The notes under the pieces were generated by a model. That model searched no databases. It saw only the letters and a program-made list of their open reading frames with translations, and was not told the origin of the DNA. Positions 2,219-60,267 of a DNA stretch of 64,000 bases are shown piece by piece (the first letter of the stretch is position 1; each line of letters opens with the position of its first letter). The position numbers and the translations under genes are program-made. Location of the stretch: the NCBI GenBank assembly GCA_016189025.1, contig JACPGS010000007.1:1162-65161 (forward strand), read 5' to 3'. The DNA comes from Candidatus Magasanikiibacteriota bacterium (GTDB taxonomy: Bacteria > Patescibacteriota > Patescibacteriia > Magasanikbacterales > GWA2-37-8).

Positions 2219-4030
2219 TTATTGGGGAAGATAATTTACGCTATAAATAGCATAAAAATCATCGGCATATTCCGGCCGCAAGCCGGTCTGATTATACCGC
2301 TCCCCGCCCGCTGGGTCAAGCTCTTTATTGTGGACGACATAGGTAACATTATAGCGGCGCAACGATTCGGCCGGGCGCACTTTTACTTCGGCAACATAGC
2401 GCTTAAATAAATCAATAAAATACTGCTCTCCGCGCCAGGAAACGGCCGTCGCCAATTCGCCGCACGGCCGCCCCAGGCGCGGCAGCTGCAGCAGCCAGCA
2501 AATTTTAACGGCGCGGTTATGCGTGCGATACTGATGCACGGCATTACCGACGCCGGCGTAAGTCTGAAAATCCCGCTCCAGATATTCCGGCGTCAATTCT
2601 TTAAATAGACTAGCGACCAAATAGCGGTCCTCTGCCTCGCGCGACGACAACAGATGCAAAATGCCTCCATTGGCAAAGAGCACGTAATGTTTGGTGAGCG
2701 CCGGAATATAGCTGGAGAGAGGATCGGCAGGGCCGGTCAACACTACCTGGGGTTTGGGCGCGGCCTGCTCCAGCCATTGGAGGGCTGGCAAGGAGTGGCG
2801 AAACCGCTCGTAGAGCGCTGCGGTATCATTGCGGGAGCGGAAAAACGACCAGTAGTGGCGGGCCAGGTAGCCCAGGCCAAGAATACTAAACACGAATAAT
2901 GCCAGCAGCAAATAACGCCGGGCACGATTTAAAACCCGCCAACCATCCCGATCTTTTATCGCTAATGCCAGGTAAGCCACCAATGCTAACGGCTGCCAGA
3001 CGGTCATAAAGCGGGAAATGTGCCCGGGCAATTCCAGGTCTTTGCCGGTAATGATGTTGCTGAAAGTTACTCCGATTAAAGCCAACCCGCTGCCAAGAAA
3101 AGTATAGAACGCGGTTCGCGCTAGCGAATTATCTCGCCAGTGATTGAAGAAGCGGTAGGTCAGCCACCATAGCCCTACCAGCGCCGCCACGCCAAAACTG
3201 GTATAAACCGCCTCGGCCATCGGCAGGCGGGTCTGCACCAAACCAATGCGCTCCATAGTTTCCCAGTAATAAGGATGCTGCAGTTGTCGGACGGTATAAA
3301 TAATCATCGGCAACGACAAAACAATCACTCCGGCTGCCATTAGCAACAGGCGCCGGAGGAGCAGCGTGCGCTGCCGCCGCGTGAACAAAAAAATTAAACC
3401 GGCCAGCACTAACCAGGCCAGCGCTACCTGGGCCAGGTAGGTATAAACGTAAAAAGTACCGGCGGCGGACAAAACAAAAAATACCTGCCGCGCCCGCGCG
3501 GTTGGTTGCTTAAACCACACAATAAACGACAGCAGTAGTAGTAGCCAAAAGGGAAATACGGTCTGCATGGAAACCGGCGTAATGATAATAAAGTATCCTT
3601 GGGCAAAGGTTAGCAACGCCCCGAGAGCGCTTCCCCATTTAGACACCCCCAACTGCGACAAAATCAAATAGGAGAAACAGATAAATACGGCAGACCAAAT
3701 CGCAACGTTGAGGAGGATAGTCGCGGCGAGCGGCAGCCCGGCAAACAAAGGCAGGGCGGCCAGCCAGTCGGCCACAAAAAACGCCGGCGCCGGATCGCGG
3801 TTATGCTCCTTAAAATACGGATTGCCGATAAAAGGAAACCCGTCCTTAATTTCGCGCAGCCGCGCGTTATAATAAGTGGAGCCGTAAGTGTGATGCGCCA
3901 GCAAGGCTAAAATTTCGCCGCGCGACCACTGGCGCACCTGGTAGGCCGCCACTATTCCCGGCAGGGCGGCCAGCAGGATAGCGACTGCCGATAAGCCGAT
4001 TAAAAATTTAAGGTGTGATTTCATAATCAT
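2219..4030 (-). CDS. polytopic membrane protein with a large C-terminal soluble domain (putative glycan polymerase/transferase; function unknown)
   Basis: 603 aa with about 10 hydrophobic segments followed by a soluble ~250-aa tail. It sits at the 3' end of the glycan locus. No confident family match from sequence alone. Confidence 0.4.
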   Translation of the reverse strand: MIMKSHLKFLIGLSAVAILLAALPGIVAAYQVRQWSRGEILALLAHHTYGSTYYNARLREIKDGFPFIGNPYFKEHNRDPAPAFFVADWLAALPLFAGLPLAATILLNVAIWSAVFICFSYLILSQLGVSKWGSALGALLTFAQGYFIIITPVSMQTVFPFWLLLLLSFIVWFKQPTARARQVFFVLSAAGTFYVYTYLAQVALAWLVLAGLIFLFTRRQRTLLLRRLLLMAAGVIVLSLPMIIYTVRQLQHPYYWETMERIGLVQTRLPMAEAVYTSFGVAALVGLWWLTYRFFNHWRDNSLARTAFYTFLGSGLALIGVTFSNIITGKDLELPGHISRFMTVWQPLALVAYLALAIKDRDGWRVLNRARRYLLLALFVFSILGLGYLARHYWSFFRSRNDTAALYERFRHSLPALQWLEQAAPKPQVVLTGPADPLSSYIPALTKHYVLFANGGILHLLSSREAEDRYLVASLFKELTPEYLERDFQTYAGVGNAVHQYRTHNRAVKICWLLQLPRLGRPCGELATAVSWRGEQYFIDLFKRYVAEVKVRPAESLRRYNVTYVVHNKELDPAGGERYNQTGLRPEYADDFYAIYSVNYLPQ

Positions 4031-6944: not shown

Positions 6945-7139
6945 GATCTCAAAATTAATAAATAAAATATATGGCTGTGGATAATTTTTTGGCTAACTTG
7001 TGCTATTTATCGTTTATGGAATCAAAATGCAATTGACAAACCTCCTATTTTCTGATAATGTAGAAATACATAAACCTGTATTCCGAACTGTCACCGGACG
7101 GTGGCGTGGCTGGGACATCCAGCATAGGAACGTGGTTGA

Positions 7140-7166
7140 AAAGAGCCCTTCGGGGCTGTTTTTTGT
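7140..7166 (-). terminator. hairpin AGCCC-TTCG-GGGCT with flanking T/A runs, immediately after the DUF3800 gene stop
   Basis: The sequence aaaagagcccttcggggctgttttttg is a tetraloop hairpin with U-tracts on both strands. Confidence 0.5.
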
Positions 7167-8731: not shown

Positions 8732-8734
8732 ATT

Positions 8735-12774: not shown

Positions 12775-12848
12775 GAGACTGTAGAAAATACCGGCAATAC
12801 CCACTGTTTAACTGGTCGCTATCGCTATTGCTAAAACTCACTTGGTTG
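12775..12848 (-). repeat. MITE family 1, truncated copy C (right arm only, reverse orientation)
   Basis: GAGACTGTAGAAAAT...CTGGTCGCTATCGCTATTGCTAAAACTCACTTGGTTG matches the reverse complement of the TTAGCAATAGCGACAGCGACCAGG...ATTCTTCTACAGTCTC arm. The hairpin core is absent. Confidence 0.7.
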
Positions 12849-17708: not shown

Positions 17709-18881
17709 TTACTCCTCAAAATAATCAATAATTTTCCCAATCACCGTATCCAAATTATGATGCGCGCGAACAAAACCAATCGCTGCTTGATTAGGCAACT
17801 TTTCCGGCTTTAGTATACCATTCTGCCACATTTTTTCAATGGTTTGGGCCAGGGCCGCCGCGTCTCCGGCGGGGAAGGTCCACACTACTCCCGCGCGCTC
17901 GGCATCAGCATAGGCAGGGCTAGAAGTGATAACGTAGCGGCCGGCGGCGAGCGCCTCCAACACTACCTTATCCGCGCTGCCGGTGCGGCTGGGGTGGATA
18001 AGAAGATGATAACGATGATAAATACTGGGCATCTCCAGATAATCCTTCCGCTCACTGCGGAAACCTACTGCCCTGCCCCGGCTTGGTCGCTCGGTCGCGG
18101 CAGACACTCTAGGTGCTCGCGGAGCTGCGCGCCTAGAGAACTCGTCTGCGGCTCCCTCGCTCATTCGTAATTCAAAGTTATTAGTCATTTCCTCTAAATA
18201 CTTTTGATAATGCTTATCGGCTGCCGTAATTGGACTGCCGACAATGGTAAAACGTAAATGGGGAAAATCAGGCACCTGCTGGAGTTGGATTAAGGCTTGG
18301 AAGATAATTTCGTAATTCTTCACTGCACTAATCCGGCCGACCGCTAAAAGCCACAATTCATGAGGATCGGCAATCTCTTCCGGTCCCGCCGCGAATAATT
18401 CCACCGGAATCCCGTGCCCCACCACCTCCACCTTGGCGCTCGGCAAGCGAAAACTCTCCGGCGAGGCGGTGAAAATTTTGTCCGCTCGCTTTTCCGCCTG
18501 CTTCAACCACCAGTTAACTGATTTATGCACATACCAAAGGAGAATTTTTTTCTGATGTTTCCGCCACCACCAACCGCCGAGCACCACATATTCCGGATTC
18601 ATGTGAACGAAAACACCATCATAATCATTTTGATACTGCCGGATCAAGCGACGAAAACGGAAATAATAAACCAAACGCCGTAGTAGTTTAGGGAGTCTTA
18701 ACATCTTTTCCTTTCCCAGCGACAATACGGTAACATTATTCGGCAACTCAAATTCACCTTGTTCCAAACAAATCACAATCAAGCGCTCGGTGCGCGCCGA
18801 GAGGCGGCGCAGCCATTCAAGAAAAAACCCCAGCGCCGGATCGGCGCGGTCTACTTTTTGAGTAATCACCAATAAACGCAT
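17709..18881 (-). CDS. GT4 glycosyltransferase carrying an in-frame insertion of a MITE family-1 core
   Basis: GT4 C-terminal motifs are IHPSRTGSADKVVLEALAAGRYVITS. An insert of about 35 aa, AADEFSRRAAPRAPRVSAATERPSRGRAVGFRSER, is encoded by the repeat core. Confidence 0.7.
   Translation of the reverse strand: MRLLVITQKVDRADPALGFFLEWLRRLSARTERLIVICLEQGEFELPNNVTVLSLGKEKMLRLPKLLRRLVYYFRFRRLIRQYQNDYDGVFVHMNPEYVVLGGWWWRKHQKKILLWYVHKSVNWWLKQAEKRADKIFTASPESFRLPSAKVEVVGHGIPVELFAAGPEEIADPHELWLLAVGRISAVKNYEIIFQALIQLQQVPDFPHLRFTIVGSPITAADKHYQKYLEEMTNNFELRMSEGAADEFSRRAAPRAPRVSAATERPSRGRAVGFRSERKDYLEMPSIYHRYHLLIHPSRTGSADKVVLEALAAGRYVITSSPAYADAERAGVVWTFPAGDAAALAQTIEKMWQNGILKPEKLPNQAAIGFVRAHHNLDTVIGKIIDYFEE
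18084..18168 (-). repeat. MITE family-1 hairpin core inserted in-frame within a GT4 CDS (copy K)
   Basis: CTTGGTCGCTCGGTCGCGGCAGACACTCTAGGTGCTCGCGGAGCTGCGCGCCTAGAGAACTCGTCTGCGGCTCCCTCGCTCATT aligns with the intergenic copies, for example 52440..52540. The reading frame is preserved. Confidence 0.75.
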
Positions 18882-23922: not shown

Positions 23923-25115
23923 AATTGGGAAAAAATTACTTGCATATCTCTGGCGATGCCTTGCCAGATATACTTCTCGGCGATGAGCTTTCGACTATTC
24001 TCCCGCAACCGCTCGGCTAATAATTTATCGTCGAAAATCTTTTTAATCTTCTCCGCAATGTCTTTAGGGTCGCCGACTTGGCAGAATAAACCGGTCTCTC
24101 CGTCTTGCAAAAAATCCGGAATACCGCCGACTGGCGTCGCCACCACCGGCAGACCAGCGGCCATTGCTTCCAAAAAAGCGCTGCCCAGGCCCTCGGAACG
24201 GCTGGGCCGACAGAATACATCGCTGTCCCACAAATACTTAGGCAATTCATCGTGCGATAAACTTCCTAAAAAATGCACTCGCTCGGCTAAATGCAATTGC
24301 TTGGCCAAACTCTTCAATTTGCCTTCTAGGGGACCGCTGCCAGCGATCAATAAATGAACGGATGGCGGTAAAAACTGCATGGCTTTTATGAGATCGGCTA
24401 CCCCATTCTTTTTTACCAAACGCGAGGCGGTAATTACTAAAGAAACATCATTCCGAGCAAAGGGAGCGCTAGCGACCGTAGTCGAGGAATCTCTTAATTT
24501 AGCGAGAAGGATTCCTCCACTCCCCCGACTTAGTCGGGGTCGGTCGGAATGACAGTTGAACCGCTCAATATCTACACCGTTGGGAACCACCTCCACCGGA
24601 CATTTCGCGCCGAGTTGGCGCGCCCAGGCCGCCAAATAATTGCTAATCGCCTGAATCCGATCGGCCCGCTGAAAAATTTGTTTGAAATACGGCCAGCACC
24701 ACCAGACATGTTTATAAATCTGCCACCGACTATCGCCCTCTTGCAGGGTCAGCAAAAAGGGAACGGCCGGATTTCTTTTTTTATAACGCAAAGCAGCGAA
24801 TCCCCCGTAGCTTGCCATAATCGCCCACACCAAATCAAACCGGCCTAACTTCCTGGCTTCCTGCCAACCAACTTTAACGAGCCGGTACTTATCCCAGTGA
24901 TTGTCCTCTCCGATGCGGTGCACCTCAATATTTCCGATACGTTCAATCTCCGGCAATTTTGCATCTAACCGCGCGGTGAGCATCACAAACTCAAACTCGC
25001 CGCCGAGTCGATCGGTAATTTCTTTTACGGCAAACTCGGCGCCGCCCACCAGTGGCAAATAGGCAGTGGAAAAAATCAGAACCCTTTTAGCGGGCAAAGG
25101 CGACATAGTTACCAC
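23919..25115 (-). CDS. GT4 glycosyltransferase carrying an in-frame family-2 repeat insertion
   Basis: Has PLVGGAEFAV and LLIAGSGPLEGKLKSLAK...FCRPSRSEGLGSAFLEAMAAGLPVVATPVGG. The extra segment HSDRPRLSRGSGGILLAKLRDSSTTVASAP is encoded by the repeat at 24485..24560. Confidence 0.7.
   Translation of the reverse strand: MVTMSPLPAKRVLIFSTAYLPLVGGAEFAVKEITDRLGGEFEFVMLTARLDAKLPEIERIGNIEVHRIGEDNHWDKYRLVKVGWQEARKLGRFDLVWAIMASYGGFAALRYKKRNPAVPFLLTLQEGDSRWQIYKHVWWCWPYFKQIFQRADRIQAISNYLAAWARQLGAKCPVEVVPNGVDIERFNCHSDRPRLSRGSGGILLAKLRDSSTTVASAPFARNDVSLVITASRLVKKNGVADLIKAMQFLPPSVHLLIAGSGPLEGKLKSLAKQLHLAERVHFLGSLSHDELPKYLWDSDVFCRPSRSEGLGSAFLEAMAAGLPVVATPVGGIPDFLQDGETGLFCQVGDPKDIAEKIKKIFDDKLLAERLRENSRKLIAEKYIWQGIARDMQVIFSQL
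24485..24560 (-). repeat. family-2 palindromic repeat (core CCCCGACTAAGTCGGGG) inserted in-frame in a GT4 CDS
   Basis: Its reverse complement, ...CCGACCGACCCCGACTAAGTCGGGGGAG..., matches the intergenic copies at 40678..40785 and 56508..56571. Confidence 0.65.
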
Positions 25116-34478: not shown

Positions 34479-37400
34479 TTAGTAAGTGAGGGTCTTGGAC
34501 TGGAGCGGCAGGTCGGAGCCCATGGCAGTTACGTTCGTAGAGACGCCATCACCCCAGGTAACCTGGCCGCTGCCGATGCGCACCGAGAGACTGGGATTCG
34601 GATTGGTCGTCGTCTTGGTGGCGGCATCGGTGGTGTCCAAGGTGACGTGAATCGCCTTGGAAGCGCCCGAGGAAATCTGAAGATCGGTGAAGTTGGCATC
34701 GGTAATTGAAGAATTGCCATTGGCAGTGGTACCAGTACCAGTGCCTTGAGCAAAGGTCATGGAATATGCATAGTTGGTGGTAGCCAACAGGTTGGCGGTA
34801 GCCACGGAATCTTTGTATACCGTCAGGGCGCGCGTTGCCGCCACTCCCGCCGCCTGCGAGATGGTGGTGCCTAAGTTGAAGTTCATCAGCTGCACCGTGG
34901 CAGTGTGGCCTTCCACGTTCGCCTTGTTGGTAATCGTAAAGATTCCAACGGTCTGCGCGCTGTTCGGCGAGGAAGCGCTGGCGGTGGCGAGGAAGCTGGC
35001 ATCCCAGCCCACGGTGAGCTTGGCGCGGTACAAGGTAGTAGTGGGAGCGTGGGCGCCCAGGCTCAAACCGTATTGATTGGCGTTCGTCAGGAACGAAACG
35101 GTCGGGGAAATCGACACGCCGGATTGCATACCGGTCGCCGTGAACGGCGTAATGCTGCCCACATTGAAGGCCGAAAGAATTACGGGTTCAACGGTCTGGC
35201 CGGTAGTCGCGGCGCCGAGTTCGCCAAAGGTGGTAAAGTCAGCTATCAGCTTAATCTTCTTGGTGGCGCCCTTCGGAATCTCCAGATTAAGACCAGTGAA
35301 GGTGGCGTGCGAATAAGTGGTGGAAGCAGCCGAGGTGCCGGCAACAGAATCGCTGAAAGCAGACACGGTGCCGCCGATCTGGGTGCCGGTAACGTCATCC
35401 ACCAGCTTGACGTTCTTCATGGTGCCGGTGGCGCCGGTGGAGAAGCGCGCGCTTACCACGAATTGGGTAATCTTAATCGGCTCGGTGGTGCTCGCTTGCA
35501 GAGCAAACTTGGCAATGGTCTGATTCAGATCGCCCATCAGGTAGTTGTTGGCTACCGGCGAGTCTGAATCTACCGAGGCCATAAAGCTGCCTGCCGCGGC
35601 AATTTCCACATTCTGGAGCCGGACGGCCTGGCCGGTAAGGCTGGCGCTGGAGCCGGTAGTCTTGCCAGTAGCGGTCACACCGGTGAGGTTCAGGAGAGCC
35701 GTGGCGGAAAGCGTGGAAGACTTCACGTCCGCATACACATCCACCGTGTACTGGGCGCCGTTAGTAATAGTTACTGCCGGCGACACGTTAAAGGTGAAGG
35801 TGTTAACCGTGGAACAGGTGGTGGACGGGTTAGGCAAGGTCTGCCCCAGTTGCGTGCCAGCCGAATTCTTCAGCGTCAGGTTCTGCAGATAGGTGCCGGT
35901 ACAAGTATTGGCAGTGCGGTCGGCCAGGGTTATCTGCGAGACTTCTACATCTTCACCTGCCCCGGCGGTAATGACGAACGAGGCTACTTTGACGCTGCTG
36001 GCATTTACCGTGCCAGTCGGGTTAGCAGAAGATTTATCACCGAACGCTCCATTCATCGCCAGACTTACCGTGCCCGCCCGCACCGTCAGGGTGTTGGCGT
36101 TCTGGTTCACCGTGGTAAGGGAGGTAAGCGAGGTCATGCCCTGGGCATTGTTGCTGGTGCCGACCAGGCCGACCACAAAGGTTTCGCCGGCGACTACGGT
36201 GTCGTTGGTGGTGTCGGCGTCTACCGTTACGGTAACGGTTTTGCCGGCTTTAATCACAAAGCTGCTGCCAAACGATCCCCAGCCGCTGTTGGAGGCGCCG
36301 TTGGCAGTTAAGCTGGAGATGGTGGAGCCCACTTGCGAGCCGTCTATCTTCAGGCGGACATTGGCTAATATGTTGTCTACCGAACCAGCTGAAGTGGAAG
36401 ACACATTCAGGCTGGTGATTTTAACGTTTTCACCATTGGCTTTCCACAGGAATTTAGCCAGGGTAATGGTGGTAGCCGCATCGGCAATGTTGCCGCTCGG
36501 CGAATCGGCGGGCACAGTCTGGGTAAGCGTGCCAACGTTAATGGAGTAATCCACCGCGGTGCTGCCGGTAACGGGCTGAATCACCGTAAAGGTGTCGGTG
36601 CCGTTAGACTTGAGGAAGACGTTATAGCCCTTATCGTAGACCACGAAGTCGCCCGCGTTCTGCAAACTGGCGCGGAAAGTGCGGTTGGTACCGCCAACGA
36701 TGTCCAGCTTGAAGCTTATATTCTTAACCTGGCCCTTAGTTACCAGGTAGGGCGCGGCGCTCAAGTCAAAGGTGATGGATTTGTCCGTCGCCATTTCTGG
36801 TACGGTAGAACCAATCTGCTTGCCGCCTTCCCACAGACTAAAATTGGCGAGGTCGCCGACGCTGACTGAACCGACGATGGTTAAGGTCAGTTTGCGCACT
36901 TCGGTGTCCTGGTCGCCGTTGGTGAGGGAAAACCGCCAGGCCTCAAAGCCCGTGGTACCCGGATCAACTGTGCCGTTCGCCGAAGGAGACTGGGTAGCCA
37001 GCAGCAGGTAACCGAGGTCAGAAACCAGCGCCGTGGTAAAGGTGTTACCCGTTACCGGATAGCTCCCGCCCACCGAGGTGGAATTGGAAACTACCGCCTC
37101 CTTGTTCTCTACCGCAAAGCTAAGGGTCTTGCCGGCAGACGTATTGTTGCGCAGGTCAAGTTTAACCGTTATGCTCTTACTGGAGCCCTTGGCAACGGTA
37201 AAGAGGCCGGCGCTCTTGGTGAAGGTAATATAGCTGTTGGATACGGTCGGGTTGCTGCCGGCCATAATATCTCCGTCGTACAGGTACATATTGCTGATAT
37301 CTGTATCGGCAGAAACGCCACCCCGCTTCAGCTTGACGCTGGTAACTTTCACATCGCCATCGCTGCCGGCGGCAAAGGCCAACTTCATTACCGAAATCAT

Positions 37401-38270
37401 GCCCTGACCACCGGTATTGCCGCTCGTATCCGAGTCGGTAACCACGGTCGCCGCAAACGGAGTGTCCGCCGCGAGCGATACGTTAAGCGCGCCGCCCGGA
37501 GTGGATGTGGCAGTTGTTGGCCCTCCCACGACTACTACCCCACCGCTCTGGGTTTTGTCGGTCCAGGCCTTTACTTCGGCCGAAACCGCTTCACCGGTGG
37601 AAACACCGATAACTGCCGAATCCGGCACGGTGCGGACGTACTTAGAGAGGAAGCCGTTCGCGGTCATGCCGCTCTCGGAAACCTCGCGCAGTTTGCCCTC
37701 GGAATCAACATACCAGGTTTTACCGGCATTCTTGACGAGCATGCCGGGGTGCACCTTGGCCTCGGAAATAGCCGGGCCGCGGTTCACGTAGTTCGGCCAG
37801 TCGCGATCGTCAATAGTGTAAGCCTTGAAGTTGGTGCCGTAGAGCACTTTGGCCGCTTCCATAGTGATGGGCGCTAAGGTGTTACCCGGCTCAAGTACAT
37901 AGAGCTGATCCGAAGCAACGCGCTTCACGACCAAGGTGCCCGGGCGGAAGTTAACTCCCACCGGGAAGCCACTCGGCGCCATCAGGGTGTCAAAACACTC
38001 CTGGGTAACGGTAATATAGCCGCCGTAGTTAAGCCGCCAGGTCTTGAACTGATCGCCGCTCCAGAAATAGAGGTACTTGCCATCATTGTTAATGGCGTAG
38101 ATAGGGGGTTTGCCTTTCACTTTAATCATGTCACCCGCGTTAAGGGTGGGGCAAGCGGCGGCGAGCGCTGCCGAAGGCAGCAAGGCCGAAACGCCTACCG
38201 ACCACATGATGGTGGTGAAAGTTACCCCGATTGAGGTAATTTTCTTAAGCAATTTAAAGATATTGGACAT
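34479..38270 (-). CDS. large Thr/Ser/Gly-rich repeat-domain cell-surface protein (S-layer/adhesin-like; candidate glycoprotein)
   Basis: 1263 aa with an N-terminal signal/TM. Ig-like modules of about 100 aa recur, for example MKLAFAAGSDGDVKVTSVKL, AKFLWKANGENVKITSLNV, VASFVITAGAGEDVEVSQITL and AKFALQASTTEPIKITQFVV. Confidence 0.6.
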   Translation of the reverse strand: MSNIFKLLKKITSIGVTFTTIMWSVGVSALLPSAALAAACPTLNAGDMIKVKGKPPIYAINNDGKYLYFWSGDQFKTWRLNYGGYITVTQECFDTLMAPSGFPVGVNFRPGTLVVKRVASDQLYVLEPGNTLAPITMEAAKVLYGTNFKAYTIDDRDWPNYVNRGPAISEAKVHPGMLVKNAGKTWYVDSEGKLREVSESGMTANGFLSKYVRTVPDSAVIGVSTGEAVSAEVKAWTDKTQSGGVVVVGGPTTATSTPGGALNVSLAADTPFAATVVTDSDTSGNTGGQGMISVMKLAFAAGSDGDVKVTSVKLKRGGVSADTDISNMYLYDGDIMAGSNPTVSNSYITFTKSAGLFTVAKGSSKSITVKLDLRNNTSAGKTLSFAVENKEAVVSNSTSVGGSYPVTGNTFTTALVSDLGYLLLATQSPSANGTVDPGTTGFEAWRFSLTNGDQDTEVRKLTLTIVGSVSVGDLANFSLWEGGKQIGSTVPEMATDKSITFDLSAAPYLVTKGQVKNISFKLDIVGGTNRTFRASLQNAGDFVVYDKGYNVFLKSNGTDTFTVIQPVTGSTAVDYSINVGTLTQTVPADSPSGNIADAATTITLAKFLWKANGENVKITSLNVSSTSAGSVDNILANVRLKIDGSQVGSTISSLTANGASNSGWGSFGSSFVIKAGKTVTVTVDADTTNDTVVAGETFVVGLVGTSNNAQGMTSLTSLTTVNQNANTLTVRAGTVSLAMNGAFGDKSSANPTGTVNASSVKVASFVITAGAGEDVEVSQITLADRTANTCTGTYLQNLTLKNSAGTQLGQTLPNPSTTCSTVNTFTFNVSPAVTITNGAQYTVDVYADVKSSTLSATALLNLTGVTATGKTTGSSASLTGQAVRLQNVEIAAAGSFMASVDSDSPVANNYLMGDLNQTIAKFALQASTTEPIKITQFVVSARFSTGATGTMKNVKLVDDVTGTQIGGTVSAFSDSVAGTSAASTTYSHATFTGLNLEIPKGATKKIKLIADFTTFGELGAATTGQTVEPVILSAFNVGSITPFTATGMQSGVSISPTVSFLTNANQYGLSLGAHAPTTTLYRAKLTVGWDASFLATASASSPNSAQTVGIFTITNKANVEGHTATVQLMNFNLGTTISQAAGVAATRALTVYKDSVATANLLATTNYAYSMTFAQGTGTGTTANGNSSITDANFTDLQISSGASKAIHVTLDTTDAATKTTTNPNPSLSVRIGSGQVTWGDGVSTNVTAMGSDLPLQSKTLTY

Positions 38271-38443
38271 AATTTAATTAAGTAATTATGGTGCCGGGTC
38301 AGCGGAAGGTTTCCGCCTTCTCCGGCGCACAAGTGATCAGGCAAGTCCGATATGGACTCTCGACCTTGCGGCGCTGATCAGATTGACAATTTTTCCCTCT
38401 CCCTGCTGTCCGGAAACATTCCGGACAGCAGGGAATAGAAAAA

Positions 38444-39769
38444 CTAACGGCTGACCGGATGGCGGTTGATAGCGGCGCCCGCCCCGCCCCCGACCGGCAA
38501 AGTAGTGGTGGGCAGAGTACTGGACATAGTGGTAACCGGCGCGACCGGCAAGGGCAGCGTAGTGGAAGCGCTGATCGCTTCTTTAACTACTGCTACTGCC
38601 GGCAATACCTCCTGAATCTTGCTGACCGCGGCGTCGCTGATACGCTCCGCCTGGGTGCCGGCGTCGGAAGCTTGCTTAAGCTTATCCACCGCTTGCGCTA
38701 AATCATCTTGCTTTAACCAGCTGGAGGCTTCGGTTACCTGTTTGGTCACTTCGGCCGTAGCAACCTCGTTCTGCAATACCGCTTTAATGGTTTGGTTGGC
38801 GACATCGGTGATTTTGTCTTTTAATTCGGTGGATTTAGTGGTGTCGCCTCCCGCAGTTTTAGTGCTACTTACCAGCTCTTTCGCCTCGCTTTGCGCGGTC
38901 TGCACCATGGTCTTTGCCCCGTCCACGCTCTGCTGGGTTGCCGCGGCGTCTTGCGCCACAGTCCGCAGGGTGGCAGTTAATTCCTGCTTGACCTCCTCTT
39001 TAGAAACACTCCGATCGCCGCCCAGGTGCTTGGCCACCATCGCTTCCGCCGCCTTTACTGCTACGTCCTTAACCAAATTCTTGGTGGTATTCACTTCCTG
39101 CGACAGAGCCTGATCAGCCGTATCGCGGCTAATCAATAAATTCTCTTTCACTTCTTGCAACACGGCCCTAATCTCTTCGGTATTCTGTTTAACATCTTTC
39201 ACGGCCTGGGCCGGCAGACCGTTAACCGGCCGCTGTTTGACCGCTTCCAGTTTATTTTCCACCGTGGTAATTTCACTGGTTAAATCGGCCATCGCTACCC
39301 GCACCTTGTCAGTTTTGGCGGGCGCCGTTTCCGAACGAACCAATTTTTTAGTTTCCACGGCGCGGCGTTTGGCAAATTCCATATGCAAACGGGTGGCCGC
39401 GTCTTTTTTTCCGATAATCGTCGCCACTGCCACCTGGGTTTTTTCCGCGGCGCGCTTCACCGGATAAAGGGCGTCGCCCGGCAGAGTTTCATAGGCCGCA
39501 TCCACCGCGCCGGCGCCGCTCGCCAGCACTGCCACCACTACTAACAGCACCAAAGCCGGGCGCAACACCTGGTACACCAAACTTTCCGGCAGATAATGGG
39601 ACAGGCGCGACCACAGATTTTCTAAAACATTAACCCGCTCCCGGGGCCTGGCCGGCAGCGTATTTTTAATCTGCGACAATAACAGGGCGCGGTTTTGCTG
39701 CACCCATTCCGCCCGGGGACTAGCTTCCCCCTGGCGCAGACGTTTAAGTTGTTCCACTATCTCGCGCAT
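38444..39769 (-). CDS. single-pass membrane protein with extracytoplasmic coiled-coil/Ala-Thr-Lys-rich domain; putative anti-sigma factor
   Basis: Cytoplasmic N-terminus, one TM (LVLLVVVAVLASGAGAV) and a long helical ectodomain. It lies directly downstream of the ECF sigma gene, separated only by a MITE. Confidence 0.35.
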   Translation of the reverse strand: MREIVEQLKRLRQGEASPRAEWVQQNRALLLSQIKNTLPARPRERVNVLENLWSRLSHYLPESLVYQVLRPALVLLVVVAVLASGAGAVDAAYETLPGDALYPVKRAAEKTQVAVATIIGKKDAATRLHMEFAKRRAVETKKLVRSETAPAKTDKVRVAMADLTSEITTVENKLEAVKQRPVNGLPAQAVKDVKQNTEEIRAVLQEVKENLLISRDTADQALSQEVNTTKNLVKDVAVKAAEAMVAKHLGGDRSVSKEEVKQELTATLRTVAQDAAATQQSVDGAKTMVQTAQSEAKELVSSTKTAGGDTTKSTELKDKITDVANQTIKAVLQNEVATAEVTKQVTEASSWLKQDDLAQAVDKLKQASDAGTQAERISDAAVSKIQEVLPAVAVVKEAISASTTLPLPVAPVTTMSSTLPTTTLPVGGGAGAAINRHPVSR

Positions 39770-39804
39770 AATTCCTTTTGCTTACTCTGATCATTACTAA
39801 ACTG

Positions 39805-39982
39805 AAATTGTTGCAGAAGAATCCAAACTATTTCACCTGATTCGCCTGGTCGCTGTCGCTATTGCTGGGACTGCCTGATTGGTCGCGGCAGACACTCTTT
39901 GGGTGCTCCCCCGATTTAATCGGGGTGCGCGCCCAAAGACACTCGTCTGCCGCTCCCTGATGCTAACTGGTTTCTTCAAATT
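39805..39982 (-). mobile_element. MITE-like repeat, family 1, copy E (reverse)
   Basis: TTGCAGAAGAAT...CCTGGTCGCTGTCGCTATTGCT...GGTCGCGGCAGACACTCTTTGGGTGCTCCCCCGATTTAATCGGGGTGCGCGCCCAAAGACACTCGTCTGCCGC... Confidence 0.85.
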
Positions 39983-39990
39983 ATCTCAAA

Positions 39991-40542
39991 CTAACCTAAT
40001 TTCTGCCGCAACCGTTTCAGCGCCCGGTGAATCATTACTCGCACCGTCAGGCCGCGCTTGCCGGTGATCTCGGCAATTTCCTCAATGCTTAATTCATCAA
40101 TATAGCGCAAGGTTATTACTTCCTGATATTCCTGCTTCAGCTGTTTCAGAGCATTGACGATAACGCCGGCGTCCAACGAAGTATGAAGCTCGGCATACCA
40201 CCGTCCCCCATCGCCCGGTTCAATCGCTTCACGCCGCGCTGCTAATGCTTCAATCTTTTGGCTGCCGGCCCGCTTCCGGTACCAGTCAATAATAGAGTTT
40301 CGCGCAATGCGATAGAGCAGGCCGCTGAAACTTTTGATGGCCTTGCCTTCCTGGAAGTACTGCCAGGCTTTCAAAAATACCTCCGAAGCAATATCTTCGG
40401 CCTCTTCGCGACTGCTCACCTTAAAAAAAACAAAGCGATAAATTTGCTGGATGTATTTATCGTAAAGAGCGGCGTAGGCTTCCGGATCCGCGGCGGTTTT
40501 TACCTGATACAATAGTTCCTGGTCTGAAGGCGTTTTAGACAT
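39991..40542 (-). CDS. ECF-type RNA polymerase sigma factor (sigma-70 regions 2 and 4)
   Basis: YDKYIQQIYRFVFFKV, DIASEVFLKAW, DELSIEEIAEITGKRGLTVRVMIHRALKRLR. Confidence 0.8.
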   Translation of the reverse strand: MSKTPSDQELLYQVKTAADPEAYAALYDKYIQQIYRFVFFKVSSREEAEDIASEVFLKAWQYFQEGKAIKSFSGLLYRIARNSIIDWYRKRAGSQKIEALAARREAIEPGDGGRWYAELHTSLDAGVIVNALKQLKQEYQEVITLRYIDELSIEEIAEITGKRGLTVRVMIHRALKRLRQKLG

Positions 40543-40677
40543 TATAGAAGACGGTTAAAAACAGAAAATGTTACACCCCCTGGTTGCAAAGGATAGCCAC
40601 TATCATAGCAAAATCAGCTGAAAATAGCAACCTTTAAACTACCGACTAGGCTGATTAGCAGGCTTAATAATAGGCCA

Positions 40678-40785
40678 AAATATCAATTTTCTTAAGCGGT
40701 CATCGCGGTCGCCTAAGGCGACCGACCGACCCCGACTAAGTCGGGGGAGGGGGTTTGACCGCGAAAAAATTGATATGTTTTAGCC
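40678..40785 (+). repeat. family-2 repeat, full copy with inverted termini AATATCAATTTT / AAAATTGATATG
   Basis: Nested hairpins GTCGCCTAAGGCGAC and CCCCGACTAAGTCGGGGG. Shares the GACCGC...AATTGATATRTTTTAGCC tail with 56508..56571. Confidence 0.65.
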
Positions 40786-40826
40786 TTATATATAGAGAGC
40801 GTTTTAATTAGCACTATTGATTCACT

Positions 40827-41006
40827 AAAATTTGTATAGACTAGTCTATACAAATTTTATCATTTTTGCCTAAAATTAGCAAAAACTCCTTAAACATTAC
40901 TTTTATATATTTGTATACAACAGTGTATACAAATTATTGATTAAAAATAACCCCTTGACAGCTTAGCCAATTTTTGCTAAAATTTGTATACACTAATGTA
41001 TACAAA
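40827..41006 (+). promoter_or_regulatory. three operator-like palindromes TTTGTATA(C/G)A-N4-T(G/C)TATACAAA plus a consensus sigma-70 promoter (TTGACA 40955..40960, N17, TAAAAT 40978..40983)
   Basis: Palindromes at 40827..40858 (perfect, 32 bp), 40909..40934 and 40981..41006. The last overlaps the -10/+1 region of the downstream HTH gene. Confidence 0.6.
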
Positions 41007-41009
41007 CTT

Positions 41010-41345
41010 ATGGCAATGACGAAAAATACTGAAGAAAAAAAGGAGATTATCCGTGTTTCTATCTCGGAAGCAGCCCGGCTGTTCGGCGTTAACAGCCAAA
41101 CTATCCGGCGCGCCATTAAAAATCAGGAAATTACTTATGTAGTAGTGTCCGGACGGTATAAACTTAATTTTGAAAGCCTGGTGCGCTGGTCGCAAATCCA
41201 TACTACCGTAAAGAACAAACTGGCGCATCGCGGCATTGGCCAGTTTGTGGATAAGTGGAAAATTAAAAATCCGCTGTATTCCCCCAATCCTAAATCAATT
41301 ACTCCAAAGTCTCCCGCCCCGCCAATTACTTCAGGGAACCTTTAA
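41010..41345 (+). CDS. small helix-turn-helix DNA-binding protein (excisionase/MerR-superfamily HTH_17-like)
   Basis: MAMTKNTEEKKEIIRVSISEAARLFGVNSQTIRRAIKN. The start is chosen downstream of the promoter. Context is AT-rich. Confidence 0.5.
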   Translation: MAMTKNTEEKKEIIRVSISEAARLFGVNSQTIRRAIKNQEITYVVVSGRYKLNFESLVRWSQIHTTVKNKLAHRGIGQFVDKWKIKNPLYSPNPKSITPKSPAPPITSGNL

Positions 41346-41400
41346 TCCTCCTCTCACCGGGAGGATTTTAGTTTGACCGCAATACTTAGCCTGCTATAAT

Positions 41401-41590
41401 GAAACTGCAGAAGAATATCAACTATTTCGTTATCTACCTGGTCGCTATCGCTATTGCTGGTAACTGCCTGGTTGGTCGCGGCAGACACTCTTTGGGTGCT
41501 CCTCCCGACTAAAGTCGGGACTGCGCGCCCAAAGATACTCGTCTGCCGCTCCCTAATGCTAACTGGTATTTTTAATTCTTCTACAGCCTC
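41401..41590 (-). mobile_element. MITE-like repeat, family 1, copy F (reverse)
   Basis: AAACTGCAGAAGAAT ... core with apical loop CCCGACTAAAGTCGGGA ... ATTCTTCTACAGCCTC. Confidence 0.85.
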
Positions 41591-41604
41591 ATAATACAAA
41601 AAGT

Positions 41605-43326
41605 ATGCGGGTAGGACTATTTTTACAGCAACATTACCGCCAGCGTTACCGCCCGGTCTTCCGCCATGCCCGGCAATTATTTATTTTTGACCTGGTTTTG
41701 CTGGCGGCGGCTCTTGCTTTAGGCGGGGCAACCCTATATTTTTTAATCTGGAAGCCAAACCCGGCTGATAAAATTCAACTTACCCTGGAATTAGCCGGCG
41801 GACGTATTCGGAGCGGCGATTTAATAAATTTCACGGTTAATTACCAAAATCAAAACCAGACTACTATTCGCGACGCTCGCCTCCGGCTGATGATGCCTGC
41901 CTCGTTCATTGCCGCCGCTACTGCTGACCAGGAAATTAATCTGGGAGATTTAGCGCCCCAGGCAAAGGCAAGCCTGGATTTCTCGGGCCGTCTGTGGGCT
42001 ACCCCCGGACTAACCGAACGCCTGACCGCCATCATCTCCTTTTCCCCTGATAAAAATACGGCGGAGAGAGTACAAAAAACCTCTTCCGTTGAGGTAAAGC
42101 TCCCGGCCAGCGCTTTAACCGCCACCCTGGATATTGCCAGCGCCACTTTCGGCGGGGTAGCGCTTCCCTTCACGGTCACTCTTACCAATAATACTGATGC
42201 TGTTTCGCCGCCGCTCCAATTATTAGTAACGCCGCGCCAGGAAACGCTAATTGCCGCCACCACCTTTGCTCCCTTGCCTCCCGGCCAGCCAAAGACTATC
42301 ACCGGCGCTTACTCTCCCGCCCGCGGCCCGGCCGCTAATATCCCTCTCACTCTTACCACCCAAGTAATAACCAAGGGAACAGCCGTCACCCAAAATATTC
42401 TCTCTCCCTCCCTTAAGCGTTTAGCCCCGGCGGTCTCCTTGACTATCCAGGTAAAAGAACGGCCGCCCCGGGCTGAAGCGGCCGGAGAACTGCCGCTGGA
42501 GGTTAGCTGGAAAAACTTAAGCCCTTATCGCTTACTAAAGAGCCGGCTGCTGCTGGCATTTTCGCCGCCCCTGGTAGATCTTAAAACCACGGCAATCAAT
42601 AACCGTCTGCCCACCGAAAACAACAAGCTCCTCTTCACTGCGGAAGAGAGGACTGTTTTGCAGCAGGTAAAACCAGGGGGAAGCGATCAATTTACTATTC
42701 CGCTTCAACTATTATCTACTTTCTCGGCCTTAAATCTTACTACTGCTACCTTTACTATTACGCCTGTTCTGCAGGCGACCTTGGCCGAGGTGCCCCAGGA
42801 AACTTTTGTCGCGACCGGCACTCCTTTAGCTATCCCGATTCTGACCGAACTGAAATTGTCCCCGGAGGTGCGCTATTATACGGATGAGGGCGACCAGCTG
42901 GGGCGCGGCCCCCTGCCGCCTCGGGTCGGCAAAACTACCAAGTACTGGATAATGGCGCGCCTGGCGAACACCGTTAGCCCGGTGTCAGAAGTAAAATTCC
43001 AGGCTGCGCTTGCTCCCAGCGTCACTTTTACCGGCCGCCAAAGCGTTACTTTGGGCGCCCCGTTTACTTACGATACAGCAACGCGGGTCGTTTCCTGGCA
43101 GCATCCAGAGCTTCCCCCGCAAAGCATAACCGGACTTTATTTTGAAGTAGCGCTTACTCCTACGCCGGAAATGGCAGGGAAAGCGCCAACCTTGGTAGAA
43201 ACTATCCGAATTAGGGGAAGCGACGCGGTGGTAAAACAAGAACTGCAGCAGGAGTTTCCTGCTCTGACTAATGAGCTTCCTCCCGCTGATCGCGGCAGAC
43301 GCGCCTCTCCGCTCGTCAACCTATAG
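41605..43326 (+). CDS. membrane-anchored repeat-domain extracytoplasmic protein (hypothetical)
   Basis: 573 aa with an N-terminal TM (LFIFDLVLLAAALALGGATLYFLIW). Thr/Leu/Pro-rich modules of about 90 aa follow. Confidence 0.4.
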   Translation: MRVGLFLQQHYRQRYRPVFRHARQLFIFDLVLLAAALALGGATLYFLIWKPNPADKIQLTLELAGGRIRSGDLINFTVNYQNQNQTTIRDARLRLMMPASFIAAATADQEINLGDLAPQAKASLDFSGRLWATPGLTERLTAIISFSPDKNTAERVQKTSSVEVKLPASALTATLDIASATFGGVALPFTVTLTNNTDAVSPPLQLLVTPRQETLIAATTFAPLPPGQPKTITGAYSPARGPAANIPLTLTTQVITKGTAVTQNILSPSLKRLAPAVSLTIQVKERPPRAEAAGELPLEVSWKNLSPYRLLKSRLLLAFSPPLVDLKTTAINNRLPTENNKLLFTAEERTVLQQVKPGGSDQFTIPLQLLSTFSALNLTTATFTITPVLQATLAEVPQETFVATGTPLAIPILTELKLSPEVRYYTDEGDQLGRGPLPPRVGKTTKYWIMARLANTVSPVSEVKFQAALAPSVTFTGRQSVTLGAPFTYDTATRVVSWQHPELPPQSITGLYFEVALTPTPEMAGKAPTLVETIRIRGSDAVVKQELQQEFPALTNELPPADRGRRASPLVNL

Positions 43327-43486
43327 TCCTCCACTGGATACGTTAGAAAACAGAAAACCGCCTCTTGACGGCAGAGACGGCCTCGGTGGACCTGACGGGA
43401 TTTGCACCCGTTTACCCGGGATATCAATCCGGGGTGTTAACTACATACACCACAGGCCCGCACAGGTCCAACGATAATTGTACAAC

Positions 43487-49967: not shown

Positions 49968-50040
49968 TGAAACTGTAGAAGAATTGAAAAACGACAGCGA
50001 CCAGGCGGAAAATGATATAGTCGGTATTATTCTACAGTCT
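49968..50040 (+). repeat. MITE family 1, internally deleted copy G (TIRs plus right arm, no hairpin core)
   Basis: AAACTGTAGAAGAATTGAAAAA-CGACAGCGACCAGGCGGAAAATGATATAGTCGGTATTATTCTACAGTCT. Confidence 0.75.
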
Positions 50041-50044
50041 AAAG

Positions 50045-56508: not shown

Positions 56509-56571
56509 AAATCTATTCGCCCCGACTAAGTCGGAACGCGACGACCGCTAGCCAATTGATATATTTTAGCC
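56508..56571 (+). repeat. family-2 repeat, short copy
   Basis: GCCCCGACTAAGTCGGAACGCGACGACCGCTAGCCAATTGATATATTTTAGCC. Confidence 0.6.
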
Positions 56572-59293: not shown

Positions 59294-59320
59294 CCTGTTA
59301 ATCATTACTTAATAACCTGA

Positions 59321-60141: not shown

Positions 60142-60193
60142 AGGTGAAAGGAGGTGGACAATAGACAGCGCCTGGAGCGCGGCGCGGGTGGTG

Positions 60194-60267
60194 TGCACGC
60201 CAAGGGAGTCGAACCCCTGACCTTCTCGGTGTAAACGAGACGCTCTAACCAGCTGAGCTAGGCGTGC
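60194..60267 (-). tRNA. tRNA-Val (anticodon TAC)
   Basis: Folded by hand from the minus strand: GCACGCC-TA-GCTC-AGCTGGTTA-GAGC-G-TCTCG-TTTACAC-CGAGA-AGGTC-AGGGG-TTCGACT-CCCTT-GGCGTGC-A (74 nt). All four stems pair. 3' CCA is not encoded. Confidence 0.8.

Follow-up and report, generated by a model that had tools for sequence, protein, structure and literature searches.

Introduction

Is a segment of DNA that lies between two copies of a transposable element itself a mobile module, or does it belong to the core of the chromosome, into which the elements have inserted late? This question is raised by a locus on a stretch of 64,000 nucleotides (nt), called the window here, from a Candidatus Magasanikiibacteriota bacterium (assembly GCA_016189025.1, contig JACPGS010000007.1, positions 1,162 to 65,161 of the forward strand). 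The locus encodes an extracytoplasmic function (ECF) sigma factor and, divergently, a small helix-turn-helix (HTH) protein, and a copy of a miniature inverted-repeat transposable element (MITE) stands on either side. An earlier note on this DNA had described it as a compact regulatory or mobile module delimited by MITEs, with one MITE wedged between the sigma gene and the gene of a putative anti-sigma factor, and with an HTH gene that is autoregulated through three operator palindromes. Next to nothing is known of how genes are regulated in the rarely cultured bacteria of the Candidate Phyla Radiation (CPR), and a literature search on DUF5667, ECF sigma factors of Patescibacteria, transcription factors of Magasanikbacteria and MITEs of CPR bacteria found nothing relevant. 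We have compared the locus with its relatives and conclude, with a probability of roughly 0.72, that it is a regulatory hub in the core chromosome of Candidatus Magasanikbacteria, with an autorepressing HTH gene and late MITE insertions.

The locus belongs to a conserved gene order

The HTH protein has 1850 relatives in the database and is encoded in 283 GTDB species; neighbourhoods were compared in the best 80 of these 283. In nearly all of the 80 loci the same order of five genes is kept. The genes of a giant putative surface protein, of a membrane protein of the DUF5667 family and of the sigma factor are read leftwards, and the genes of the HTH protein and of a 573-aa protein are read rightwards. 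The giant protein (1,263 aa) matched no Pfam family, and its orthologue stands at the equivalent position in most of the 80 loci. Because the genes outside both MITEs share one conserved block, the reading as a mobile module fails. The MITE itself is found in none of 201 related loci, 1.5 Mb in total.

A cassette of sigma gene, operators and HTH gene between two MITEs, in which the HTH protein would act as an excisionase or as the repressor of a mobile element, was attractive for two reasons: MITE copies do lie on both sides of the segment, and the HTH protein matches the excisionase-type domain HTH_17/TIGR01764. We give this explanation almost no credence, since the genes on either side of the MITEs form one five-gene order in about 80 species, the related loci lack the MITE, and the conserved neighbourhood contains neither an integrase nor a transposase. 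In addition, the HTH protein is 68-88% identical in the best 120 of its 1850 database relatives, which fits a core gene that is shared by many species. Those of the best 120 that carry a name are labelled Candidatus Magasanikbacteria or Patescibacteria. Many related records of metagenome-assembled genomes (MAGs) bear the title 'uncultured Gammaproteobacteria bacterium'; judged by gene content and protein identity they belong with Magasanikbacteria/Patescibacteria, and they look like third-party assemblies with a wrong label.

Conserved operators at the promoter of the HTH gene

A search for the palindrome TTTGTATASA-N4-TSTATACAAA in the window returned exactly three occurrences, where chance predicts none, and further matches with up to 3 mismatches were absent from the 64 kb. 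These are the three palindromes of the earlier note, whose positions (40827, 40909 and 40981) were off by 1-4 nt. The TTGACA-N17-TAAAAT promoter that it had placed at the third palindrome is also there, and its -10 element touches that operator (Table 1). The palindromes are not peculiar to this genome. In a census of 79 sigma-HTH intergenic regions, one per species, operators were found in 78, with 1-4 copies each and 171 in total (no operator in 1 region, one in 11, two in 30, three in 36 and four in 1). Over the relatives the consensus reads aaaA-TTTGTATA(C/G)ACTAGT(G/C)TATACAAA-tttt, and those positions that the search pattern had left free (0, 9-14 and 23) are strongly conserved as well. 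The sites are inverted repeats, with perfectly complementary outer 7-mers in 126 of the 171 operators, and they are spaced by a median of 82 bp. The 10-kb flanks of the loci hold almost no extra operators.

As a rule the proximal operator starts where the -10 element of a conserved TTGACA-N17-TAnnAT promoter ends, and 2-20 nt separate the operator from the start codon of the HTH gene. An arrangement of this kind is classic for genes that repress themselves. The proposal of an HTH gene autoregulated through operators over its own promoter is thus very probably correct: operators are present in 78 of 79 species, and, as described below, a residue of the recognition helix covaries with an operator base.

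Three further observations concern this intergenic region. In one relative (L074, around 2850-3500) the operator-overlapped HTH promoter lies about 670 nt from the HTH start codon instead of the usual 2-20, with an insertion between them. An inverted-repeat motif of the type GCTAA-N2-3-TTAGC occurs in 13 of 79 species where about 2 are expected, in 12 of these 13 between the two distal operators; the same motif stands at a dksA locus (L117, 3505-3517) between operators and promoter. A leftward promoter overlapped by operator 1 (TTGCTA-17-TAAAAT, 40882->40854), a mirror image of the arrangement at the HTH promoter, was considered as a means of direct control of the sigma gene. It is rejected as a general feature because it is not conserved beside the distal operators of the relatives, and also because the sigma gene has its own promoters 100-250 nt further on.

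The HTH protein as the likely binder of the operators

The 111-aa HTH protein is present where the earlier note had put it. It matches HTH_17 with 28.8 bits against a cut-off of 27 and stays just under the cut-off of TIGR01764 (28.5 against 28.8 bits). A sequence search of the PDB with the protein gave nothing significant. Its AlphaFold model is confident over residues 11-60, and residues 15-60, approximately, superpose on the Xis protein (gp37) of Pukovnik with 1.1 A over 46 columns. The model also superposes on BldC (2.3 A), RacA and GlnR. The C-terminus consists of a conserved helical extension of 40 residues with an NPLYSPNPKS motif and of a disordered tail. Of the description as excisionase/MerR-like, the HTH_17 domain and the Xis-like fold have stood, and the excisionase role has not: no integrase lies beside the HTH gene in the conserved gene order of about 80 species, the context in which a recombination directionality factor would be looked for. 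Nor is the layout that of a classical MerR activator, as the promoter spacer has 17 bp, the operator lies downstream of the -10 element and the C-terminus is a short helical extension with a tail. Direct-repeat sites of the BldC type were not seen either, the sites associated with the HTH gene being inverted repeats.

A covariation links the protein to the operator. Residue Q30, at the start of the second helix, is invariant in most species and is replaced in 6 (by L in four and by A in two), in at least 3 sequence contexts. A G at position 5 of the half-site (TTGTGTA) is found in 17 of 34 half-sites of the species with a replaced Q30, compared to 13 of 350 in 72 species that keep it. Counted by species, TTGTGTA occurs in 6/6 versus 12/72 (Fisher p=7e-5; Mann-Whitney p=2e-7), with statistics that ignore shared ancestry. 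The loss of Q30 tracks the G at operator position 5, and therefore the adjacent HTH protein is the likely binder of the operators. It probably binds the 24-bp palindromes as a dimer.

It is unlikely that the palindromes are bound by another regulator that is encoded elsewhere, with the HTH gene being just one target like dksA and rmuC. Such a regulator would account for the occurrence of the operator at several unrelated loci, and the binding of the HTH protein to the operator is itself read from sequence. The palindrome also has a loose likeness to SOS-box-like TGTATA...TATACA sequences. Against another regulator it counts that 78 of 79 species have the palindromes at the promoter of the HTH gene and that changes in the recognition helix track changes in the operator. 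In addition, autoregulation is the commonest arrangement among small HTH regulators.

Operators at further loci

Exact operators were found in at least 120 metagenomic stretches, and the following counts are among the matches listed. Sigma/HTH loci make up 40 of them. Another 20 are dksA-lspA loci, in which two operators 113-145 bp apart lie 400-700 nt upstream of a TraR/DksA zinc-finger gene that is followed by lspA. In 13 loci an RmuC-like gene stands downstream of the operator. The DksA homologues are named Magasanikbacteria by NCBI. In one MAG, a dksA locus with two operators and the HTH locus lie on one contig of 628 kb; here, the operators upstream of dksA are at 2380 (2 mismatches) and 2493 (perfect), and they are followed by a strong promoter and then by a non-coding stretch of about 350 nt. 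The palindrome is therefore not unique to the spot that the earlier note described, as at the scale of the genome it stands at dksA-lspA too and in metagenomes near rmuC-like genes, and the objection of uniqueness which that note had raised against itself falls away. Neither the window nor any of the 80 HTH loci contains a gene similar to dksA, lspA, rmuC or that of an O-antigen-ligase-like protein.

Exact operators also adjoin the gene of an O-antigen-ligase-like membrane protein (about 765 aa) in 8 loci among the matches listed. RmuC-like and O-antigen-ligase-like genes occur several times in one locus (L082, L113, L120, L132, L116, L135, L162, L177 and others). In Magasanikbacteria relatives (L117, 3574-4040; L201, 2611-2950) two operators, a strong TTGACA-17-TATAAT promoter and 350-450 nt of non-coding DNA precede the TraR/DksA gene. 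Part of this non-coding DNA is conserved from contig to contig, and Rfam does not match it; a small RNA that is missing from the annotation, or a long leader, may be encoded there. Spurious-looking open reading frames (ORFs) had raised the suspicion that operator loci without an HTH gene might be promoters of rRNA or tRNA genes. Rfam found nothing but tRNAs in the vicinity, with the operators downstream of them, and the idea was dropped.

The sigma gene and its promoters

The ECF sigma factor is confirmed. The protein matches Sigma70_r2 (50 bits), Sigma70_r4_2 (52 bits) and TIGR02937 (94 bits, cut-off 42.9), and its nearest solved structures are SigW (5wuq, 4e-19) and sigma-BldN (6dxo, 3e-17). 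A strand-specific word count on the intergenic regions (leading words TGTTACA and GAAGACG) revealed a motif that reads gTGTAACA-N15-CGTCT(t/a)CTAtaATG on the sigma strand of the relatives, equivalent to TGTAAC-N16-CGTC. Promoters with AAC and CGT elements are a hallmark of ECF sigma factors. Of the 80 loci, 75 carry the motif, 74 of these as a single copy (L046 has a second one), at a fixed distance of 7 nt from the sigma ATG. Transcription should therefore start at or beside the ATG, and we infer that the sigma mRNA is leaderless and that the ECF promoter is autoregulatory. The relatives carry in addition a TTGACC-17-TAnnAT promoter 55-160 nt upstream of the sigma ATG. The surface-protein genes were considered as direct targets and discarded, as the ECF promoter motif occurs only at the sigma gene in the window and in the 10-kb flanks of the 80 loci.

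A DUF5667 membrane protein as candidate partner of the sigma factor

The product of the gene downstream of sigma is indeed a single-pass membrane protein, as the earlier note had stated, with 441 residues and one hydrophobic helix modelled at residues 62-84. Its match to DUF5667 is under the cut-off in the window (22.9 bits against 27). The family was matched in 27 of 32 full-length orthologues (best 4.7e-14), and the identical database protein (P0241) was already annotated with PF18915. The model (pLDDT, the predicted local distance difference test, 78) has helices at 2-12 and 20-35, the hydrophobic helix and a helical domain at 102-402. It thus consists of a conserved cytoplasmic N-terminal segment of about 40 residues, one transmembrane helix and a confident, all-helical outer domain. 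Membrane anti-sigma factors have a short cytoplasmic N-terminus, one transmembrane helix and an outer domain; the 441-aa model, with its extracytoplasmic C-terminal domain, has this topology.

The anti-sigma domain that the earlier note had expected in this protein was not found by Pfam, PDB profile or fold search. Pfam families of the ASD, zf-HC2 or RskA type were absent from the 32 full-length and from 30 N-terminal orthologues. A PDB profile search with the N-terminus gave 0 matches at E<=10, a PDB sequence search with the full protein gave coiled-coil noise only, and Foldseek with the model returned no anti-sigma chain and no structural neighbour.

Support for an anti-sigma role comes from the gene context. 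In at least 69 species the DUF5667 gene lies directly downstream of the ECF sigma gene, and in 69 relatives a median of about 5 nt separates the stop codon of sigma and the start codon of DUF5667, most gaps being between -35 and +30 nt. On the strength of this context we lean towards the view that the DUF5667 protein is an anti-sigma factor or another partner of sigma. A serious alternative, which we rate somewhat lower, is that it is an envelope protein, encoded by the first target gene in the sigma operon. The failure of the domain, profile and fold searches would be explained by this, as would a conserved cytoplasmic part of just about 40 residues and a large, confidently modelled outer domain that is like nothing solved. 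The tight position behind sigma in so many species, the topology of known membrane anti-sigma factors and the conservation of the N-terminal segment speak against the envelope protein.

A structured RNA leader before the giant-protein gene

The spacer that separates the DUF5667 gene from the giant surface-protein gene holds a conserved structured RNA leader, seen in about 65 of 66 distinct loci. A long hairpin (approximately 38395-38440) with a CUCUC/GAGAG base and an A-run comes first. The 5' domain (38316-38389) comes next; it has the form P1-[AAGGUCGA internal loop]-P2-P1' and is followed by UUGUG in the window and by UUGUA in most relatives. Many relatives carry a second domain of the form UUGAC-hairpin-GCGCGCAA. 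Compensatory changes are found at all 5 pairs of P2, and P1 pairs with its own flanks at -10.6 kcal/mol versus -5.7 kcal/mol with mismatched flanks from other species (p=5e-27). Rfam, searched over the whole window at the gathering threshold and over 38150-41700 at E<=5, has no match to this leader, to the palindromes or to the MITE.

Two late MITE insertions

The MITE is a non-coding element of about 190 nt, with about 10 copies or fragments in the 64 kb. BLAST identified seven full copies at 4026, 8734, 20236, 39805, 41397, 52388 and 59309. Each end carries a terminal inverted repeat of 16 nt, GAGACTGTAGAAGAAT, which the window matches 14 times where 0.14 are expected, and flanking duplications of 5 bp were recognized by eye at 3 of the 7 full copies (ATATT at 8734, AACCT at 59309, ATTAT at 41397). 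The element folds as a long hairpin, whose apical stem-loop varies between copies and stays paired, and with respect to the flanking genes the copies point either way. Degenerate derivatives exist as well, namely an internally deleted copy of 73 nt with only the two ends (49969-50041) and a one-ended fragment (12775-12848). A hairpin fragment of 65 nt (18093-18157) is akin to the MITE core.

Copy E lies exactly between the sigma gene and the membrane-protein gene, as the earlier note had seen, and widens the gap to 221 nt where the median in the 69 relatives is about 5 nt. On the mRNA strand this spacer folds into a long hairpin (-72.9 kcal/mol, z -4.6). In the spacer, neither a U-tract nor a terminator-like site was called, just a weak promoter-like match, and an AAGGA Shine-Dalgarno sequence is retained before the DUF5667 gene. 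The earlier note had suggested that the MITE may decouple the co-transcription of the two genes. Loss of translational coupling, or of near-contiguity, would be the only effect of the MITE that follows directly from the sequence. The second copy bounds the other side, as had also been noted, and lies in the leader of the 573-aa gene. In the relatives this gene has a TTGAC(A/C/T)-17/18-TATAAT promoter followed by a leader of 13-35 nt, and a strict pattern for such a separate promoter matches 31 of 64 relatives. Both insertion sites, the gap between sigma and DUF5667 and the leader of the 573-aa gene, are empty in the relatives. By this comparison the locus is part of the core chromosome, and the MITEs entered it late and in a lineage-specific manner.

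The repeats of about 190 nt might instead be functional structured elements, similar to repetitive extragenic palindromic (REP) elements or to hairpins that stabilize or attenuate RNA, which spread by recombination, with the copy in the sigma gap selected for uncoupling. The conserved long hairpin, with an apical stem that varies by compensated changes, would fit this, and so would the placement of all copies in short intergenic gaps that spares coding sequences and promoters. We regard it as quite unlikely, given the 16-nt terminal inverted repeats and the 5-bp duplications at three copies, the occurrence in both orientations relative to transcription, the internally deleted and decayed copies, the absence from all relatives examined and the lack of a U-tract after the hairpin.

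The AT-rich spacer between the sigma and HTH genes also contains the repeat which the earlier note had named family 2. It proved to be an element of 115 nt with imperfect inverted ends of about 22 nt and a fold of -58 kcal/mol, and two partial copies lie elsewhere in the window (24517-24547 and 56520-56571). Its inner hairpin CCCCGACTAAGTCGGGG is nearly identical to the apical hairpin of some MITE copies, a likeness that hints at a shared or exchangeable hairpin module.

Features of the window

Coordinates are collected in Table 1. Unrelated to the locus, Rfam matched a DUF3800-IX RNA at the gathering level at 7073-7141 on the plus strand (54.4 bits, cut-off 36.8).

Table 1. Genes, promoters, operators, repeats and RNAs of the sigma/HTH locus and its surroundings (positions in the window)
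Feature	Position	Strand	Remarks
Giant putative surface protein	34479..38270	-	1,263-aa ORF; N-terminal hydrophobic segment; last gene of the leftward block
Conserved structured RNA leader	38271-38443	-	between DUF5667 gene and giant surface-protein gene
DUF5667-family single-pass membrane protein	38444..39769	-	441 aa; candidate anti-sigma partner
MITE copy E	39805-39985		decayed ends; fills the sigma-to-DUF5667 gap (39770-39990)
ECF (group 4) sigma-70 family sigma factor	39991..40542	-	183 aa; only sigma2 and sigma4 domains
ECF-type promoter TGTAAC-N16-CGTC	40550-40575	-	sigma ATG (40542) 7 nt further on; matched once in the window
Sigma-70-like promoter TTGCTA-17-TATGAT	40602-40630	-	TG-extended; promoter call, upstream of the ECF promoter
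Family-2 G+C-rich palindromic insertion	40672-40786		115 nt; 64% GC in a spacer of 25-35% GC
Operator 1 (TTTGTATAGACTAGTCTATACAAA)	40831-40854		perfect palindrome reaches 32 bp
Inverted-repeat motif GCCTAAAATTAGC	40868-40880		GCTAA-N2-3-TTAGC type; between operators 1 and 2
Operator 2 (TTTGTATACAACAGTGTATACAAA)	40910-40933		palindrome search
HTH promoter TTGACA-17-TAAAAT	40955-40983	+	TG-extended; promoter call; end of -10 is the first base of operator 3
Operator 3 (TTTGTATACACTAATGTATACAAA)	40983-41006		from the last -10 base to 3 nt short of the HTH ATG
Winged-HTH protein	41010..41345	+	111 aa; HTH_17, Xis/MerR/BldC fold; conserved C-terminal helical extension, variable tail
Terminator-like hairpin and T-run	41344-41367	+	after the HTH gene; canonical terminator in the same place in relatives
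Sigma-70-type promoter TTGACC-16-TATAAT	41373-41400	+	for the 573-aa gene; promoter call
Second MITE copy	41401-41590		directly after the -10 of the 573-aa gene promoter, 14 nt before the ATG; ATTAT duplication
Membrane-anchored protein	41605..43326	+	573 aa; weak DUF11 match; conserved right-hand neighbour
tRNA-Ile(GAT)	43385-43459	-	directly downstream of the 573-aa protein gene
tRNA-Val(TAC)	60193-60267	-	further along the window

Discussion

Taken as a regulatory hub of the core chromosome, the locus could work as follows. The HTH protein would be made from a monocistronic, rightward gene and, as a dimer, would bind the 24-bp palindromes. Operator 3 spans the HTH promoter from -7 to about +17, and its occupation would block RNA polymerase and result in negative autoregulation, to which operators 1 and 2, about 75-80 bp apart and further upstream, may add cooperative binding. 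The operators at dksA-lspA and near rmuC-like genes would make the HTH protein a regulator with a small regulon. On the other strand, the sigma gene would be served by two promoters, one of the sigma-70 type and one of its own ECF type, with positive autoregulation and a leaderless mRNA. The DUF5667 protein, whose gene is near-contiguous with sigma in relatives, would be the membrane-bound partner or anti-sigma factor, and the giant surface-protein gene would follow behind the structured RNA leader. Into this locus two MITEs of a family with inverted ends and putative 5-bp target duplications would have landed, one in the junction of sigma and DUF5667 and one in the 5' untranslated region of the 573-aa gene. 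Both insertions are predicted to add a long hairpin to an mRNA, that of sigma/DUF5667 and that of the 573-aa protein.

Several points weigh against this picture. All of its functional steps are inferred from conservation, and the neighbourhoods behind it come from the best 80 of the 283 species. In relatives, operators 1 and 2 overlap no promoter consistently. They also lie 100-250 nt upstream of the sigma-70-type promoter of sigma, so that control of sigma by the HTH protein is not supported. At dksA the operators stand upstream of the promoter and not over it, hence repression is not the sole possible mode of the HTH protein; it may act there also as an activator, or via looping. The covariation of Q30 with the operator suggests binding and is not conclusive, as it involves six species and a test that is uncorrected for phylogeny. 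The DUF5667 protein is without a domain that Pfam, PDB profile or fold searches would detect as anti-sigma. Finally, an autonomous transposon with MITE ends and a transposase was not found in the 64-kb window.

A more far-reaching interpretation is possible and must be called tentative. The HTH protein would be a clade-wide master regulator, acting through the 24-bp operator on its own gene, dksA-lspA and rmuC, the DUF5667 protein would represent a new structural class of membrane anti-sigma factors, and a new leader RNA would control the giant gene. If this were true, HTH protein, sigma/DUF5667 pair and leader together would be the first tractable regulatory circuit of an uncultivated CPR lineage. 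Even with the narrower reading as a conserved hub, the locus offers testable parts: a highly conserved transcription factor with a precisely defined operator, sequence evidence on which residue reads which base and at least one further target locus (dksA-lspA), an ECF sigma factor whose promoter motif is defined and whose mRNA is probably leaderless, a candidate anti-sigma factor of an uncharacterised domain family and a new, covarying RNA leader. None of these parts would require the organism to be cultured, as a heterologous host or in vitro work would suffice. The two MITE copies, finally, amount to a natural experiment on how a tightly coupled pair of sigma and partner copes with the insertion of a 180-nt hairpin.

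The sigma part of the locus resembles SigW-RsiW of Bacillus subtilis and sigma-BldN-RsbN of Streptomyces venezuelae, where a two-domain sigma factor has its own AAC/CGT promoter and a single-pass membrane protein is encoded downstream. In contrast to these systems, the partner here is without a recognisable anti-sigma domain and carries DUF5667, the promoter keeps a constant distance of 7 nt to the ATG, so that the mRNA would be leaderless, and the pair is invariably divergent from an HTH gene and is split by a MITE in the window genome.

The HTH protein is like BldC, phage Xis, RacA and GlnR/TnrA in that it is small, has an HTH_17 domain and is without an effector domain. BldC and Xis bind direct repeats, whereas its own putative sites are inverted repeats. 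The conserved C-terminal helical extension of 40 residues with its NPLYSPNPKS motif and the missing integrase context set it further apart from BldC, Xis, RacA and GlnR. In classical MerR activators the operator lies inside a spacer of 19 bp (19-20 bp), while here it is downstream of the -10 element of a promoter with a 17-bp spacer. In their layout the operators recall those of lambda CI (OR1-3) and LexA, with several palindromes at the regulator's own promoter, one of them over -10/+1, and the same box also elsewhere. Unlike in lambda CI and LexA, the operators are about 82 bp apart and not adjacent, and the protein has another fold and no evident cleavage or sensor domain.

The MITE can be placed beside the Correia elements of Neisseria, the pneumococcal RUP and the cyanobacterial Nezha. 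With these it shares a small size (here about 190 nt), the lack of coding sequence, terminal inverted repeats, putative short target duplications and many intergenic, hairpin-forming copies that would be co-transcribed with the flanking genes. The element described here differs in being a new sequence family in a small Patescibacteria genome, with about one copy per 8 kb of the window, with an apical stem-loop that is swapped between copies and with no parent transposon seen in the window.

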